A stretch of 64,000 bases of DNA from sequence record PV435126.1. One strand, written 5' to 3'. Source of the DNA: Escherichia phage EPFV3-03/2025. This document shows, piece by piece, positions 1-45,134 of the stretch; position 1 is the stretch's first letter; every line of letters starts with the position of its first letter. A program made the position numbers and the translations under genes. The notes beneath the pieces are model-generated. The model made no database searches. It saw nothing but the letters and a program-made list of their open reading frames with translations, and was not told where the DNA came from.

Positions 1-373
1 TTGTCACGGTCCGGCGGCGAAAGGATTCGAAATCGATGGTAAACTAATTATTGTCAATGTTGACGGGGAAGAGGTTGCAGTATATCCGGTGGCAGACGTT
101 AAAAGCCGTCTACAATGCCGCATGGATGTTACCGCCTATCAGCTTGATCCGGTCCGCATAGTTGCCCTGGTCCTGGAAGAAGAAATTAAAGCAATGCACC
201 ACAGCAACAAGTTTATTGGTGACGCTCAAGATAATATGAAGGTATGCCGCCATAAAGTTAATGAAGTGCTTAAAGAATATGGCTTTAAAGATCTGATGAT
301 CAAACGTGAGGAAAAATTCCGCTACCGTAACGACCTGGCAAATCGGATTTTTGAAATATACGAATCATTATAA
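1..373 (+). CDS. hypothetical protein, 5' partial (frame open to window start)
   Basis: ORF 89..373 has no in-frame stop upstream to position 2; followed by a hairpin plus T-run terminator. Confidence 0.5.
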   Translation, partial: CHGPAAKGFEIDGKLIIVNVDGEEVAVYPVADVKSRLQCRMDVTAYQLDPVRIVALVLEEEIKAMHHSNKFIGDAQDNMKVCRHKVNEVLKEYGFKDLMIKREEKFRYRNDLANRIFEIYESL

Positions 374-391
374 TTTTTTAACTGAATTATC

Positions 392-416
392 AAGGGGCTT
401 AGGCCCCTTTCTTTTT
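392..416 (+). terminator. rho-independent terminator
   Basis: aaggggc/gcccctt stem with ttag loop followed by T-run, directly after the stop at 373. Confidence 0.6.
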
Positions 417-1167
417 GTCTGCTCTTCCCCATACCATAAACGGCCCTACCTGACAAGTGGAATAATTGACGAGCCATCAATCCCGCACACTGTACAAATA
501 TACATGTAAAATAGCTATTGCATAACCTTTCATTGTGTGGTAGCGGTGCTATTTTTACCCGTTTTCTCTCCCAAAATTGCACGTAATGCAGCTATTGCAC
601 AAAATTTAACCTGATGCACATCTTCAGTATACTGTCAACAATTAAAAATCTTTATAAGTCATACACTTACACAAACCAAAAAGCGTGTCCTACGTGAAAA
701 ATCGGGTGTAACTATAGCCGACAGATCTCAGAATCCACGTACAATCACCATTCTATAGCCTGCAAAGTATTTATTCCAACCACAGAATAACGGAATAGTC
801 AATACTTGTATAAAATAATTATTCGTGTAAACTGCATAACATAAATCTTCTCATGTGTCAACATTTTTCGTAAACAGTCCGAAATTGTCACGATAGGTTA
901 CTATAATCAGAGAAATCTTTAGTCGTCTAATGTTTACTGTACATAACTATACTGACTGGAATCATTAGATGACTAAGAGAAAGATAAGAAATAATTAACA
1001 ATGTAATTGTTTTATCTGCAACAATAAGGCAACTATGCAAACGAATGGCATGGCGCGACGGAGTCGCGACATAATATAAAAGCAGTAACCATCACCCCCG
1101 TGATAGTTTGTCTGCAATCTATTAATCAGATCATAGTTGCCTTGTATTTAGTTAATCATGACATAAC

Positions 1168-1207
1168 AAGCAGGGCAACTATAGATCTTCTAATAGTTGC
1201 CCTGCTT
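1168..1207. repeat. perfect 15-bp inverted repeat with 10-nt spacer
   Basis: aagcagggcaactat / atagttgccctgctt arms around agatcttcta; the GCAACTAT core recurs nearby in both orientations. Confidence 0.8.
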
Positions 1208-2938
1208 TTATATTATGTCATATATTATTAACTTGTCAATTGTCACCTTGCTAATTGTTTTCATGCAAACGAATGTCATGGCTTATCATCTCTGTGTAAA
1301 CTGTCAATGTGTAAACAGTCTACGCAGGAACAATCTATACGTGAACAGTGAAACATGAAATAATAACAGTCGTTATTGTGTCGAAAGTGTCGTATTGTGT
1401 GACATTGTGTCAGACAAGTTTTTCTCCTCTTTGTCAAGTGCTGCATGGAAAATTTACAATCTGGTATGGTAGCATTTTTGCGGCCCCGTTTACATGCATG
1501 AGTGTATGTATAATCCTTGTTGTGTGGGCGTTTAGACGTCTGGACGGTCAGAAGTCCGCAGGTTAATATCTAATCTATTGGTCGCTAACTATATCCACCA
1601 CAAATAATAAGAAATACAATTGTTATATTCGTAAACAGTAACCCATGTTATCAATCCCTGTATGTATCGCCAGTGGTGCGCATAATGGGTATTATGTTAA
1701 ATTGCCCGTAATGATAACGATTCTCACAATGATAAGTATTCTCATTCATCCACACAAAATAGCTTGCAAATGTTGTGCCACTGTGTGAACGGCCTCGCCT
1801 ATTAATTTGCCTCACTGCCCCGATATTTGAGAATTGTTATAAGAATGAGAAGTATTCCCATTCCGTCCGCCTGGCAGCACTCCAGTCGCTACCGGCTCCT
1901 GACAGGGTAGCACTCCTGTAGGACAAGCACAAAATCTGGGCATAACTGGACCTGTTCAGATATTTCTGGCTGACTCTTCAGGTCTGTGTGGGAAAAGCCA
2001 ACCTCTCCGGCGGGGCAGGGGGGGTCTGCATGGCAGATTTCACCTGGAGCGAAACCCTTAAGGGTAAGATGGGGTGGTATTACAGGAAAAATTGCAGGTC
2101 AATTAAAAAATTTACGTGGTGTATGAAGCCCTCTTCAGGCAGGGCGTGTATTATGGGATGAAACCCTCTTCAGGTGATGATATTTGTGGGTGTGATATTT
2201 GCTGGAAAGCCAGATATGACGGGGCTCCCGGCGGGGATGGGGTAGTACAGGCAGGGAAAATGTGGGGATGTGGTGTGGTAAATTGATCAGGCAGGTAGGA
2301 TATGGAATATGTTACAAGTATGTTAAATATGGAGGTAGGATATTTGTAAGATTTGTGTGTAAAATCAAATACTTATGTGGTGTTGTGGTATTTTCTATAA
2401 ATAATTCAAGTTTAATAGGTGATATTTGTCTCCATCTACTTTGTGTGGTAAACAGATTCTAATTGAATTGGTTTACAAGTGTATATAAAGTATACAAATT
2501 AAAGATATAAGAAACCCCCCTCCCCCCTTCGGCTACCATTCACCTTTTCCTCTGACTGGTACTTAAACACTTATTCAGACTCTTCAGGTTATCACCCATA
2601 TATCATATGGCAGTGACTGGTGTCCTCCGGCCCCTCTTTCGTCACCCGTCCGCTTCGCCATGCTAATGCCATAGCTAACTGTTCGGTTGTTCACCCTGTT
2701 CACTCAGGTGTATCTCCATACCCCTTCAAACCGAAGAGAACAGAAAACCCGAATTACTCGGTAAAAGAAAAGAGAAGAACTTAATTTTATCAGGATAGGC
2801 AAGAATGTCAAGGCATGACTGCTCACTAAACAAGCAAACAGTCATGTGTGGGAGGTAAGTGATTGTGGTGGTAGGAAATTTAGTTGAAAGATGTGTTATA
2901 GGTGCTTCCAGCACTTTAGCCTGGCAGCTAATTGTGTG

Positions 2939-3154
2939 TCAGTCCAGCGGTTCATCCTCTACTTCACTGAAATCAATGTTCATGGTCTCTTCCCAACCAT
3001 CGATCTCAGCACAAGAGTGGAGTTCTTTAGGGTTTACTCCCAAAGCCTCAGCAACAGAGTCTATATTTAACACCTCTGGCAGGTATGATTCATCGAATTC
3101 AAGGTAAATCAGGCCACGAGTGTTGTCAGCTCCACCAAATATTTCTATCTTCAT
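2939..3154 (-). CDS. hypothetical small acidic protein
   Basis: 71-aa ORF starting MKIEI; last gene of the minus-strand block. Confidence 0.45.
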   Translation of the reverse strand: MKIEIFGGADNTRGLIYLEFDESYLPEVLNIDSVAEALGVNPKELHSCAEIDGWEETMNIDFSEVEDEPLD

Positions 3155-3274
3155 AAAATCTCCTCTGGGAATGAGAGTGTGAACAGGATTATACGTTCCA
3201 ATGCACTGGAATTTATATACGTTTGCCTCTTCAGGCCATGCTTTAGCATGATAAACTTGTGTGGGCTCGGTGCT

Positions 3275-3610
3275 TCATAGTCTGCCACCTCTGAACTCTT
3301 CGTTCTCAGGCATGATAGAGAACCAGATGGCTATGATGTCCTCCCACGTCAGGTCATCAGCCTCAGGGTCCACCTGGGACGGAGATAGAGAATCCTCAGA
3401 ATTGAAGTTTTTCTCTGCGGTCGCTTCTTCAGATGTCTCTTTAGGTGCATGTGTGTTGGTCATGTTCCACCCGTGAGTATTCCGGCAACAGCCGCTATGG
3501 ACGTAATGATCATCAGGATCACCACCAAAACCTCGGACAATGTTTTCATTGCGTATTCCATATTCTTCAAACGATGTGAGGATACTATCACAGGAGCTGT
3601 AATGTGTCAA
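3275..3610 (-). CDS. hypothetical protein
   Basis: 111-aa ORF; start uncertain (a promoter-like motif overlaps the first codons). Confidence 0.4.
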   Translation of the reverse strand: MTHYSSCDSILTSFEEYGIRNENIVRGFGGDPDDHYVHSGCCRNTHGWNMTNTHAPKETSEEATAEKNFNSEDSLSPSQVDPEADDLTWEDIIAIWFSIMPENEEFRGGRL

Positions 3611-3771
3611 CAGAAACGCCGCGAGGGTTGGTTAAAATCCGAGCGTATGGTGATTTGGGTCAAAACGGACGTGCGTTCTCGCTACGCTCGAAATAGAGAG
3701 TTGTTTGTAAGCAGCTCTTAAACGCTCTGTAATGATATTAACTACCTAAGGTATGGAATCGTGCACCAGAT

Positions 3772-3797
3772 AAAGAAAAGGACGCCACAGAGCGTCC
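3772..3797 (-). terminator. rho-independent terminator (minus strand)
   Basis: ggacgc/gcgtcc hairpin with T-run on the minus strand, just downstream of the gene ending at 3823. Confidence 0.5.
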
Positions 3798-3822
3798 TAG
3801 GTGCCTTAAATTTGATATTTTG

Positions 3823-4134
3823 CTATACCCATGAGGGCTTGTCTAGGTTGGAGTAGCTGAAGGGGGTCAAAAGGTGACTGTCAAAATCTTTCAAACTGTC
3901 CAAGTCTTTTTCCTCGTCCTGACACCATCTGTGCCTGCATTTATTGTTGTAGTGCATGGAATGCATAGCGTTCTGCAACTTAACAGGTACAAGTGATTCA
4001 GGAGTAGATAGAATTGTTGGGTATGCCAGGACTATCTCAAACAATGGAAACACATCGAAACTGAAGTCTATTTCTGCTGAGGTTGCTGGCATATAGGAGT
4101 ATTTAGCTGTCGTTGTAGACATAATCCACCTCAC
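3823..4134 (-). CDS. hypothetical protein
   Basis: 103-aa ORF, abuts the next gene. Confidence 0.5.
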   Translation of the reverse strand: MRWIMSTTTAKYSYMPATSAEIDFSFDVFPLFEIVLAYPTILSTPESLVPVKLQNAMHSMHYNNKCRHRWCQDEEKDLDSLKDFDSHLLTPFSYSNLDKPSWV

Positions 4135-4457
4135 ACAGGCTTGATAATACCTTCACCGAATAACTCTTCATATTTAATCTTATCAGGATCCCACTCCTGG
4201 ATAATTTCGAAGACAATATCCAGCCCAGGGATAATCACTTCTCCGGTATCAAGTCTGGCAAGAACAAAACCGGAAGGTTGAATGGTTTCCCAGTTGCGAC
4301 GATTAGAATAGATAACTTCGAAAATATCGCCAACCGCAATCTGTTGATCAAGGTGTTCAAGATTCTCTTTCATATAAACGCAGCGTATTTTCCGTGCAGG
4401 CCACAGGCCCCCTGCATCACGTTTATTTAGCTCTTTTACAGTAATCGGCATTAGCAT
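4131..4457 (-). CDS. hypothetical protein
   Basis: 108-aa ORF. Confidence 0.55.
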   Translation of the reverse strand: MLMPITVKELNKRDAGGLWPARKIRCVYMKENLEHLDQQIAVGDIFEVIYSNRRNWETIQPSGFVLARLDTGEVIIPGLDIVFEIIQEWDPDKIKYEELFGEGIIKPV

Positions 4458-4480
4458 TTCTGATCTTCTCCATAGATAGT

Positions 4481-4503
4481 AAAAAGAGGGGCCAAGACCC
4501 CTC
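4481..4503 (-). terminator. rho-independent terminator (minus strand)
   Basis: gagggg/cccctc hairpin with T5 run on the minus strand, downstream of the gene ending at 4511. Confidence 0.6.
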
Positions 4504-4510
4504 TTCGTTG

Positions 4511-4816
4511 TTATTCTGCAGAGCGTTTGAACAGAATGTCTGCTTCAGACATGTGCTCAACCTCTTCTTCGATTTTAGCTCGACGTTTTTCAGCTTCGTA
4601 GCGGATATCGAATTCGGTAGCCACCAATGACTTGATAAACTTAGGAGAATACAGGTGATCCTGTTTCTCGACAAGAATAATATCCTTGATAGCGTCTTTC
4701 AGATCTTTAATCTGAAGCTGAAGTTCCACCAGCTCTTCAATTGTTTTACGGAGGCGATCACGCTCTGCAGTGTCAGAAGGCAGAGAGGTGAACAGTTCAA
4801 CTTTAGATTTAGCCAT
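4511..4816 (-). CDS. hypothetical coiled-coil protein
   Basis: 101-aa ORF rich in E/K/L heptad-like sequence. Confidence 0.55.
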   Translation of the reverse strand: MAKSKVELFTSLPSDTAERDRLRKTIEELVELQLQIKDLKDAIKDIILVEKQDHLYSPKFIKSLVATEFDIRYEAEKRRAKIEEEVEHMSEADILFKRSAE

Positions 4817-4844
4817 AGTAAGAGTCTCCTTATATTGTTTTAAA

Positions 4845-5096
4845 TTAACGTTCTACAAAAATACCATTCAGTTCGATAACCAGGAATTTCTGATCTTCAC
4901 TATCGTCACGTGCTAGCACCTCACAGACGTAACGGTCATCTCCGTCATCATCACAGTCAAATACAAGGCTGAGGACTTTATCATGATAAATCTTCGACAC
5001 TACTGCCTCGTAAGTATTGCCGATTGTGAATCCAAGATAATCCCCGATGCATTTGACAACAACATGGTCGCCAGCATTTAAGTCAATCTTCGTCAT
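4845..5096 (-). CDS. hypothetical small acidic protein
   Basis: ORF 4845..5162 trimmed to the internal start MTKIDL, which has an aaggag RBS. Confidence 0.55.
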   Translation of the reverse strand: MTKIDLNAGDHVVVKCIGDYLGFTIGNTYEAVVSKIYHDKVLSLVFDCDDDGDDRYVCEVLARDDSEDQKFLVIELNGIFVER

Positions 5097-18750: not shown

Positions 18751-19713
18751 TCAGCAACCACAACTTCCGTAGTGCTTAACCCGTTCTATAACCTCCGCTT
18801 GCTTACCTTTATTGTAAGGACGAGAGTTTGGACTGGACAGATACCCGGATACGCGTCTGATCACACTGATCGTTCCTTCTTCATGGTTTCCACATTCTGG
18901 GCATACAAAGCCTTTAGCTGTTGCACTGAACTCACCAGAGAATCCACACTTAAGACATTTATCCACAGGCTGGTTAATACCAAAATACATAATGTGTTTA
19001 TATCCGAAATCAACAAGAGCTTCCAAAGCATCTAAGTTGTTTTTCAGATTTGGTGTCTCTATGTACCCAATGTTGCCACCAGAGGAGATCATAGCAAAAC
19101 CTTCCTCATACTTCCACTTATCAAAAGGCGAGCTATTGATCCATACTGGCTGATGGAAACTGTTGGTGAGGTATTCATGCTCGTGCTTCAACACTTCTGG
19201 GTATTCACGATCCAGACAGGTTGCAGCTTTATAGCATAAACTCTCAGAAGGTGTGCCGTACAAGCTAAATGCTAGTCCACTTTCCTTCTTGTATCGCTCA
19301 CAAGCATCTTTCATGTGCTGAAGGATTCCAAGAGCTAAAGCCTTGTCACCCTCTCTGCCCAAAATCTGACAGGTTTCATACACACCAATATACCCAATAC
19401 TGATGGAAGCGTACCCGTCATAGAAGAGTTTATCGATACTCTCTTCAGGATCCAGGCGAGCAAGAGCTCCTTCACACCACATGATAGGGTTCTGCCCTGC
19501 CTTTGTTCCTTTTAGACGGTTAACCCTTACAAGGTGAGCCTCATATGCCAAATCCAAATATTCGTCAAGAACTGCAAAGAAATCAACACCTTCCGTTTTA
19601 GCTTTTGCCGCAATCATTGGTAGGTTAAGGCTAACAACACCCAAGTTGAATCTGCCAAGGTATTTCTCCTCGCCTGTTACAGGGTCGCTATATTTCGATA
19701 AGAAACTTCTACA
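18751..19713 (-). CDS. nrdD: anaerobic ribonucleotide reductase, exon 2
   Basis: Begins at CRSFLS; C-terminal glycyl-radical motif RVSGY and cysteine tail CGC. Confidence 0.8.
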   Translation of the reverse strand, partial: CRSFLSKYSDPVTGEEKYLGRFNLGVVSLNLPMIAAKAKTEGVDFFAVLDEYLDLAYEAHLVRVNRLKGTKAGQNPIMWCEGALARLDPEESIDKLFYDGYASISIGYIGVYETCQILGREGDKALALGILQHMKDACERYKKESGLAFSLYGTPSESLCYKAATCLDREYPEVLKHEHEYLTNSFHQPVWINSSPFDKWKYEEGFAMISSGGNIGYIETPNLKNNLDALEALVDFGYKHIMYFGINQPVDKCLKCGFSGEFSATAKGFVCPECGNHEEGTISVIRRVSGYLSSPNSRPYNKGKQAEVIERVKHYGSCGC

Positions 19714-45035: not shown

Positions 45036-45134
45036 GCTAGGTAAGCCCTTTGGCAAGGGCGAGGATTTTTAATCCTGAAAATAGACGAGGTAGTCGTTGA
45101 ATACATAGGTGGTTCGATTCCATCACCTAGCACC
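45036..45134 (+). tRNA. atypical oversized tRNA-like element (about 99 nt; anticodon uncertain, loop candidate tttttaa)
   Basis: Perfect 7-bp acceptor pairing gctaggt/acctagc, D-arm gccc-tttggcaa-gggc, T-arm ggtgg-ttcgatt-ccatc, but about 30 nt between anticodon arm and T-arm. Confidence 0.4.

Follow-up and report, generated by a model that had tools for sequence, protein, structure and literature searches.

What is the role of a gene-free, G-rich stretch of repeated words close to the start of the sequence of Escherichia phage EPFV3-03/2025 (record PV435126.1)? The 64,000 nucleotides (nt) of this record that were analysed (the 'window', to which all coordinates refer unless another phage is named) represent a Vequintavirus (rV5-like) genome, and a first-pass annotation of its letters had drawn attention, at positions 1860-2300, to degenerate direct repeats and to clustered G-runs that could form G-quadruplexes. 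The answer developed here is that this interval begins at a genome end, and that its repeats belong to an ordered array of short boxes which stands about an even chance of representing the cis-acting signals for end formation and packaging at the concatemer junction. The underlying observation is real, non-random and conserved, and the quadruplex reading of it is a minority possibility.

The end was located through homology with three relatives, each with a record that begins or finishes at a physical DNA end. The record of phage HdK5 carries an exact 459-bp repeat at both of its ends, the boundaries of which map to positions 1413 and 1871, and the Gotham record (at its end) and the Aya record (at its start) give the same boundaries; because the ends of all three records map there, a mature DNA end is placed between positions 1871 and 1872. 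The published sizes of the repeat are 458 bp for EdH4 and HdK5 and 459 bp for Gotham (PMC6563267, PMC7471380). The interval first singled out begins at this cut (1871/1872), and its two repeat units lie in unique DNA just outside the direct terminal repeat (DTR), with the start of unit 1 at +87 to +104 nt past the cut and unit 2 at approximately 295 nt. The features at the cut itself (a slash marks the point of cleavage in the motif) are as follows.

Positions 1413-1871, no strand: the DTR, 459 bp, placed by homology to relatives with known ends.
Positions 1822-1828, plus strand: a GATATTT box, 50 nt before the cut, identical in 13 of 13 Vequintavirus relatives.
Positions 1865-1880, plus strand: the cut motif GTCCGCC/TGGCAGCAC, with the cut between 1871 and 1872.
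Positions 1873-1919, plus strand: a 33-bp local duplication (GGCAGCACTCCAGT / GGTAGCACTCCTGT) just past the cut, the copy number of which differs among relatives.

The evidence that carries the argument is an ordered, one-strand syntax of boxes that is common to seven genera of the subfamily Vequintavirinae with little or no BLAST similarity in this segment. Because BLAST finds the segment in Vequintavirus only, the matching region in other genera was located by other routes: DNA searches seeded from KPP-1 (Mydovirus) and PVP-SE1 led to Seunavirus (PVP-SE1, 4MG and FENT2), Certrevirus (CR8), Avunavirus (Av-05) and Henunavirus (pEp_SNUABM_01), and the region of phage W70 was reached via a match to a flanking protein (the flanking genes of the window and of KPP-1 are not homologous). 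In KPP-1, a 514-bp repeat has been measured by read coverage and PhageTerm (PMC9862379). The annotated repeat_region of phage DP (its positions 1-514) ends exactly at GTCCGTC/TAGCAC, and the KP12 record starts at the same boundary. Phage Schickermooser, a Phapecoctavirus and hence a member of a different subfamily, has an exact 329-bp repeat.

Around these ends, a GATATT box is found 50 nt before the cut in Vequintavirus, Mydovirus, Seunavirus, Avunavirus and Henunavirus, at -51 in W70 and CR8 and at -52 in Schickermooser; a spacing of 50 to 52 nt is thus kept in eight genera, between which the DNA from box to cut cannot be aligned. The cut motif has the consensus GTCCGYC/TRRCA, taking the form GTCCGTC/TA(G/A)C in Mydovirus, Seunavirus, Avunavirus and Henunavirus and GCC(G/A)TGCC/TGGCAGCA in W70 and CR8, and within Vequintavirus its left half is identical in 13 of 13 relatives and its right half in 11 of 13. 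No word of the terminal region is better conserved than a 25-mer inside the repeat (GTGCGYATAAnGKGTATTATGTTAAAT; window 1673-1707), which is present in all seven Vequintavirinae genera examined, at -226 +/- 2 in five of them, at -213 in W70 and at -182 in Vequintavirus, and is absent from Schickermooser.

Past the cut, one to three more GATATT boxes follow at +23 to +136, and a G-run box of the form CTCC..GG(G)CGGGG-N-GGGG, scoring 1.9-2.5 with G4Hunter, lies at +77 to +170 in Vequintavirus, Mydovirus, Seunavirus, Henunavirus and Avunavirus. Same-strand copies of CTTCAG(G) are found in most genera (not in FENT2, pEp_SNUABM_01 or Schickermooser), with three copies directly past the cut in Av-05 and the full CCTCTTCAGG in CR8. 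What had been described as a degenerate unit of one genome is a subfamily-wide module that has been duplicated in Vequintavirus (and in Av-05). The DTRs and a 'non-coding box' in this gap had already been published; of the box syntax, the -50 spacing and the G-run module, no description was found in the searchable literature.

In EPFV3-03/2025 itself, the repeat units and related words are arranged as listed here.

Positions 1972-2024, plus strand: unit 1, GACTCTTCAGGT..TGTGGG..AAAGCCA..CTCCGGCGGGGCAGGGGGGG.
Positions 1959-2024, plus strand: unit 1 including its GATATTT box, with GATATTT at 1959 (+87), CTCTTCAGG at 1974-1982, TGTGGG, AAAGCCA and CTCCGGCGGGG-CA-GGGGGGG.
Positions 2009-2024, plus strand: the G-run box of unit 1, CTCCGGCGGGG-CA-GGGGGGG.
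Positions 2026-2080, plus strand: a 55-bp insertion private to EPFV3-03/2025, with extra TGGCAG and GGGGTGG words, absent from 13 of 13 aligned relatives.
Positions 2131-2139, plus strand: CTCTTCAGG copy 2, a partial unit, identical in 11 of 13 relatives.
Positions 2164-2243, plus strand: unit 2, CCCTCTTCAGGT..TGTGGG..GAAAGCCA..CTCCCGGCGGGGATGGGG.
Positions 2164-2267, plus strand: unit 2 with further GGG and GGGG runs, comprising CTCTTCAGG at 2166-2174, GATATTTG boxes at 2179 and 2194, GAAAGCCA and CTCCCGGCGGGG-AT-GGGG; G4Hunter 1.68-1.76.
Positions 2515-2528, minus strand: a G6-A-G6 run (a C-run on the plus strand), G4Hunter -2.0, length-polymorphic among relatives.
Positions 2580-2588, plus strand: CTCTTCAGG copy 4, within a near-invariant block at 2550-2900.

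Every sequence feature claimed at first pass is present, and the copies are far above chance; of the two further recurrences of ctcttcagg, that at 2580 was placed correctly and that given as 2130 starts one position later, at 2131. The word CTCTTCAGG occurs eight times in 64 kb, always on the plus strand, against an expectation of 0.62, and none of 100 shuffles reaches eight. Four of the copies (at 1974, 2131, 2166 and 2580) fall within 615 bp and a fifth lies at 3227, and the distant copies at 19441, 26836 and 27703 sit within minus-strand open reading frames (ORFs), where we read them as ordinary codon words (the complement, CCTGAAGAG, spells Pro-Glu-Glu in one frame). Similar excesses are seen for CCGGCGGGG (two copies, 0.04 expected) and for GATATTTG (four copies in 1872-2940, 0.01 expected), and a count of enriched words in that same interval adds CAGGCAGG, GGTAGGA and TGTGGT, all on one strand; no reverse-complement copy of an enriched word was found within 1872-2940. 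The composition is likewise as unusual as had been claimed, the G-run cluster being the compositional extreme of the window: the GC content is 51.9% (G alone 32%) at positions 1860-2300 and 43% over the window as a whole, and the skew of 0.416 at 1975-2374 is about the strongest of any 400-bp window (the few that reach this value all overlap the repeat region, and the maximum elsewhere is 0.375).

Two readings of individual words were considered and set aside. The word GCCCTCTTCAGGCAGGGC (2128-2145) might be taken for an intrinsic terminator, but substitutions in relatives break its stem without compensation, and the small hairpin is not kept. The GTGG-rich words might recall Chi sites; they are not GCTGGTGG, and by reasoning the G-rich strand is wrongly oriented to protect the nearby end.

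The comparison with related phages that had been proposed as a check proved informative, both because the components of the unit recur in other genera and because the repeats are present, and the units kept, across the close relatives. Approximately 2.6 kb around the repeats matches 121 phage records, mostly at 90-95% identity, nearly all of which are rV5-like myoviruses of E. coli in the genus Vequintavirus; within the phage collection, 120 records match the region. In an alignment of the window with 13 Vequintavirus, CTCTTCAGG copies 1, 3 and 4 and the GATATTT boxes at 1822, 1959, 2179 and 2194 are identical in all 13, and the G-run of unit 2 has one shared form in 10 of the 13. The spacers between boxes vary by indels of 33 bp, approximately 50 bp and 55-77 bp, together with a 1-bp indel near 2263; the 33-bp segment just past the cut is single copy in HdK5, FV3 and rV5, and JeffSchatz and APCEc02 have an extra insert of approximately 50 bp. 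Outside the genus, the place of units 1 and 2 in W70 is occupied by an ORF resembling an HNH endonuclease (motif read in the translation), approximately 110 bp past its putative cut (locus L130, 2162-2644), and pEp_SNUABM_01 also has an annotated endonuclease gene close by.

Quadruplex prediction, which had also been proposed as a check, gave a divided answer. Only four stretches of the 64 kb have an absolute G4Hunter score of at least 1.5, and all of them fall at 2003-2542 (+1.96, +1.68, +1.76 and -2.0, of which +1.96 is at 2008-2036, +1.76 at 2233-2257 and -2.0 at 2503-2540). Peaks of 1.9-2.5 recur near the cut, on the same strand, in KPP-1, PVP-SE1, 4MG, FENT2, pEp_SNUABM_01 and Av-05; in PVP-SE1 and 4MG the box contains a canonical GGGCGGGGGAGGGGTGGG with loops of 1 nt, and in pEp_SNUABM_01 it contains GGGGGCGGGGGTGGGTTTCTGGGG. 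On the other side, no canonical motif (four tracts of at least three G, loops of 1-7 nt) occurs on either strand of the 64-kb window, where loops of up to 12 nt allow just one, at 2221-2256, and the G-run of unit 1 is variable. When quadruplexes are allowed in a minimum-energy fold (RNA parameters, single strand), units 1 and 2 are still predicted to form hairpins with C-rich half-sites, unlike the boxes of other genera, and the minus-strand run GGGGGGAGGGGGGTTTC (2531-2512) is predicted to form a quadruplex. Across the subfamily, predicted quadruplex potential tends to recur close to the cut; it is not strictly kept, and it is weakest in EPFV3-03/2025.

The array lies in a gap between convergent genes, in which most annotated relatives have no gene and which careful annotations leave empty. 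The gap, its borders and the remaining elements within it are the following.

Positions 375-2938, no strand: the gene-free gap, approximately 2.5 kb, between convergent genes (from the ORF list and a terminator scan).
Positions 89-373, plus strand: the plus-strand flanking gene, with a terminator at 392-409.
Positions 2939-3154, minus strand: the minus-strand flanking gene, which converges on the gap.
Positions 1667-1695, plus strand: a promoter-like site, with its -10 hexamer within the conserved 25-mer.
Positions 2784-2811, minus strand: a sigma-70-like promoter (TTGACA, 16 nt, TAAAAT, with TG), matching the consensus at 11 of 12 positions.
Positions 2550-2900, minus strand: a near-invariant block that holds CTCTTCAGG copy 4 and the promoter-like site.

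The predicted promoter at 2811..2784 points toward the cut without an ORF downstream, and neither of its hexamers varies among the 13 relatives; PVP-SE1 and KPP-1 have promoter-like sites at a corresponding position and with the same orientation. On the plus strand, the -10 hexamer found by the promoter scan (TATTAT, 1690-1695) is the one that falls within the 25-mer. The block at 2550-2900 has an identity to the window of 0.95-1.00 across 14 sequences, against approximately 0.9 for neighbouring genes, and its predicted fold is more stable as minus-strand RNA (z-score -1.98) than as plus-strand RNA (-0.31). Searches with blastn and nhmmer found no homologues of 2480-2940 outside the genus, and the block is a candidate for a non-coding RNA or a DNA site.

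Because the fixed 50-nt spacing from box to cut, the conserved cut motif and the polar array of boxes resemble a recognition-and-cleavage site, positions 1822-2267 are read as a putative signal region for packaging and for the formation of genome ends. Its core would be the GATATT box and the cut motif, with units 1 and 2 as accessory elements of recognition or structure. The boxes would be bound by proteins, of which the terminase (a recognition factor resembling a small subunit, together with the large-subunit nuclease) is the most likely; they would set the cut at a constant distance and indicate where on the concatemer packaging begins or ends. The G-run box might be a further binding site, or else a structure-prone stretch that would stall replication or transcription while the repeat is duplicated, and the promoter, firing toward the cut, may open or clear the DNA; the phiOR promoter of T7, which lies near the right end and points at the repeat, has a parallel role. 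Terminase cuts exact terminal repeats from concatemers, and a second copy of the repeat is synthesised, by a mechanism that is poorly understood, as is the way in which phages of this type begin and finish packaging (PMC13595956, PMC10438801).

Several observations weigh against this packaging-signal reading. The length of the unit-1 G-run changes in nearly every lineage, and within the genus the columns of the boxes are conserved at 0.92 against 0.88 for other columns (zones of large indels excluded), a contrast so small that the argument rests on the cross-genus syntax. In that wider comparison, the cuts of Seunavirus, Certrevirus, Avunavirus, Henunavirus and W70 are placed by motif homology. 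The order and strand of the G-run and CTCTTCAGG boxes are preserved, and their distance to the cut is not; W70 and CR8 have, instead of a G-run box, a C-run box that lies within the repeat (-31 to -15) and has the opposite strand sense. In Schickermooser the GATATT boxes are retained and the G-run box is missing, so that the latter cannot be essential for a shared cutting mechanism. The -50 spacing is better evidence for the GATATT box and the cut motif than for the units that were noticed first.

Of the other explanations, the one that survives best, while still being unlikely, is that of a transcription boundary, at which C-rich, G-poor minus-strand RNA, arising by read-through of the last operon or from the promoter at 2811..2784, would load Rho and stop transcription before the DTR and the convergent genes. 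No intrinsic terminator was detected by the terminator scan after the last minus-strand gene, and the authors of the rV5 genome, which they treated as circularly permuted, expected a bidirectional terminator in this gap and found none (PMC3606486). The GC skew reaches +0.62 at 2175-2374, the strongest in the window, so that minus-strand RNA there would have a C/G ratio of approximately 4, and promoter-like sites are aimed at the region in three genera. Such a boundary would account for the skew but not for the invariant words and their spacing; it leaves the GATATT box at -50 and the cut motif unexplained, and the run box of W70 and CR8 has the opposite strand sense. Rho loading sites need a composition, and are not known to need invariant words of 7-9 bp or a fixed order relative to a DNA end. 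The reading is not exclusive with packaging, and both could coexist in the same DNA.

A replication origin or primer-forming element, in which transcription into the G-runs would leave an RNA-DNA hybrid or a quadruplex that primes DNA synthesis, is quite improbable. Mitochondrial conserved sequence block II (CSBII, a G6AG8 block) and the R-loop origins of T4 work in this way, and the flanking promoter-like sites (1667-1695, plus strand; 2811..2784, minus strand) do converge, a minus-strand transcript would reach GGGGGGAGGGGGGTTTC approximately 250 nt after its start, and the GC skew changes sign in the region. However, the switch in skew coincides with the change in gene orientation, as the rV5 authors pointed out (PMC3606486), and transcription of units 1 and 2 from the better-supported promoter would yield C-rich RNA, which does not favour R-loops. 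Iteron-type origins have several direct repeats of 17-22 bp at regular spacing beside an AT-rich unwinding element, and the words here are 7-9 bp long and irregularly spaced; Tandem Repeats Finder reports only an 18-bp repeat at 1710-1744, within the terminal repeat, and nothing in 1872-2940. Nor was the G6AG6 run found at that place in other genera.

There is also a small chance that the units have no function, being tolerated duplications and slippage-prone homopolymers in a recombination-prone end where only the cut site and GATATT are under selection. The region is indeed rich in indels and lineage-specific inserts (the 33-bp duplication, the inserts of approximately 50 bp, the private 55-bp insert and the HNH gene of W70), the G-run of unit 1 differs in almost every lineage, and the G-run box is missing from Schickermooser. 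Yet the CTCTTCAGG and GATATTT cores stay invariant while the spacers between them change, components, order and strand are all shared with genera without detectable DNA similarity here, and the strict single-strand polarity of the enriched words would not be expected of neutral sequence.

The weakest alternative, that the region encodes a non-coding RNA or small proteins, is very improbable: it can appeal to automated small-ORF calls (for example the 'structural protein' FDG86_gp065 in APCEc02, and many ORFs in PMBT16) and to the adjacent block at 2550-2900, near invariant and with a predicted promoter and the minus-strand z-score of -1.98, but an Rfam scan of 1-5000 returned nothing in 375-2938 at E <=1 (its sole match being a weak sraA at 4474-4566), the small ORFs of 1986-2462 are excluded because 1-bp and non-triplet indels break their frames among close relatives, careful annotations leave the gap empty, and the invariant block lies outside the coordinates first flagged and offers no covariation to examine.

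Returning to the packaging-signal reading, three of the features expected of such a region in a phage with DTRs were found at this locus: an exact DTR by homology, an element that adjoins the cut, and a conserved sequence at fixed spacing from the cut in eight genera. As in T7/T3-type phages, a short exact DTR would be cut from concatemers by terminase (PMC13595956, PMC10438801). Further points of likeness are short, degenerate, same-strand repeat arrays beside the DTR and a promoter, without a gene, that points at the repeat. There is, however, no sequence similarity between the two; EPFV3-03/2025 belongs to an unrelated lineage of myoviruses, its boxes are GATATT, CTCTTCAGG and G-runs, and its promoter is of the host sigma-70 type and not one for a phage polymerase. 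The repeat-flanking arrays of T7, the pacB site of T3 and phiOR are reportedly treated by Dunn and Studier in 1983, Chung and Hinkle in 1990 and Fujisawa and Morita in 1997. In lambda (cosB) and in SPP1 and P22 (pac), short recognition repeats also lie beside a nuclease cut, with the small subunit recognising and the large subunit cutting (PMC13595956), but those systems produce cohesive ends or headful, permuted genomes, and their recognition sequences are unrelated.

A further analogy, of layout only and without DNA homology, is with herpesviruses, the large terminase subunit of which is homologous to that of phages. In what one source says of these elements, herpesvirus pac1 consists of a T-rich element flanked by G-rich runs and can form G-quadruplexes (citing Biswas 2018), and pac2 of a CGCGGCG motif beside a T-rich stretch, with cleavage at a fixed distance (PMC13595911). 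Here GATATTT boxes similarly stand beside CCGGCGGGG-N-GGGG runs near the DTR, with one box at a fixed 50 nt from the cut; but the G-run box is outside the DTR and at a variable distance, and the G-runs lie on one side only, where a signal of the pac1/pac2 type would have G/C runs on either side of a T-rich core, set within the terminal repeat at a constant distance from the cleavage site. That the G-run box is a structure-forming part of the packaging signal across Vequintavirinae (as a G-quadruplex, or as a hairpin between C-rich half-site and G-run) is doubtful. Were it so, these phages would possess a tailed-phage counterpart of the quadruplex-forming pac1, and the involvement of non-B DNA next to the cleavage site in substrate recognition by terminases could be ancient or recurrent.

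With respect to existing annotation, the rV5 genome paper drew the gap as a 'non-coding' box, without explanation, and called the genome circularly permuted (PMC3606486), the nomo and naswa records annotate a 34-bp repeat_region that lies within the DTR, and DTRs of 458, 459 and 514 bp have been published; in all of these the boxes, their fixed spacing to the cut and the G-run module are undescribed. The rV5-like phages are widely isolated as therapy candidates for E. coli, Klebsiella, Salmonella and Cronobacter, and many of their records are opened at arbitrary positions or described as permuted, and the box syntax lets physical ends be predicted from sequence across the subfamily. The boxes also single out specific short stretches of DNA that binding assays and mutagenesis could target in studies of packaging in DTR phages, and provide a concrete test of whether G-run or quadruplex-prone DNA helps phage end formation, as has been proposed for herpesvirus pac1. 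Even if the units should prove dispensable, the genome ends would be fixed and the rV5 'non-coding box' explained.

Several minor observations concern the flanking genes and the rest of the window. An 87-aa protein at 110-373 (plus strand), adjoining the gap, has homologues only in Phapecoctavirus and its relatives; in Phapecoctavirus, of a different subfamily, the identity is 88-90% and the gene is also 1.2-1.5 kb from the ends of the records. The label 'DNA translocase FtsK' that it bears in some records looks like an unsupported annotation carry-over. A 101-aa protein at 4511-4816 is conserved, yet in KPP-1 it lies 35 kb from the repeat. A scan for transfer RNAs (tRNAs) places them at 44.5-45.4 kb, with none close to the repeats, and within this cluster ARAGORN reports a 99-nt tRNA-like gene with a four-base anticodon (atcc) at 45036-45134 (plus strand), which may be an odd or intron-bearing tRNA, or a false call.

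Within the DTR, words resembling a Fur box, such as AATGATAAGTATTCTCATT, which matches GATAATGATAATCATTATC at 14 of 19 positions by hand count, lie at 1712-1747 and 1828-1863, the first of which is the 'repeat_region' of nomo and naswa. They recur in the terminal regions of Vequintavirus, KPP-1 and Schickermooser (locus L005 at approximately 3700-3790, 4240-4330 and 4440-4480; the Schickermooser junction), they overlap weak promoter-like hexamers when read by eye, and they could reflect iron-responsive control at the genome end. A scan of IMG/VR with AATGATAANNATTCTCATTC returned 112 stretches on many metagenome contigs, which were judged to be a generic Fur-box-like operator word, unrelated to the element, and were not used; a scan of the same database with an exact 29-mer from the repeat edge gave zero matches.

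Among the matching records are 19 labelled 'Campylobacter phage' (GenBank MG0656xx), which match the region at approximately 90% identity; that of A135 is flagged UNVERIFIED and has a taxonomy line reading Vequintavirus, and these records are probably mislabelled, or contaminants from E. coli phages. Finally, at the other boundary of the DTR (1412/1413), three ATTGTGT(C/G) repeats stand immediately before the repeat (window 1340-1412) and TTGTCAAG / CTTGACAA words, common to KPP-1 and DP, stand just inside it; the motifs flanking the two ends of the DTR differ.

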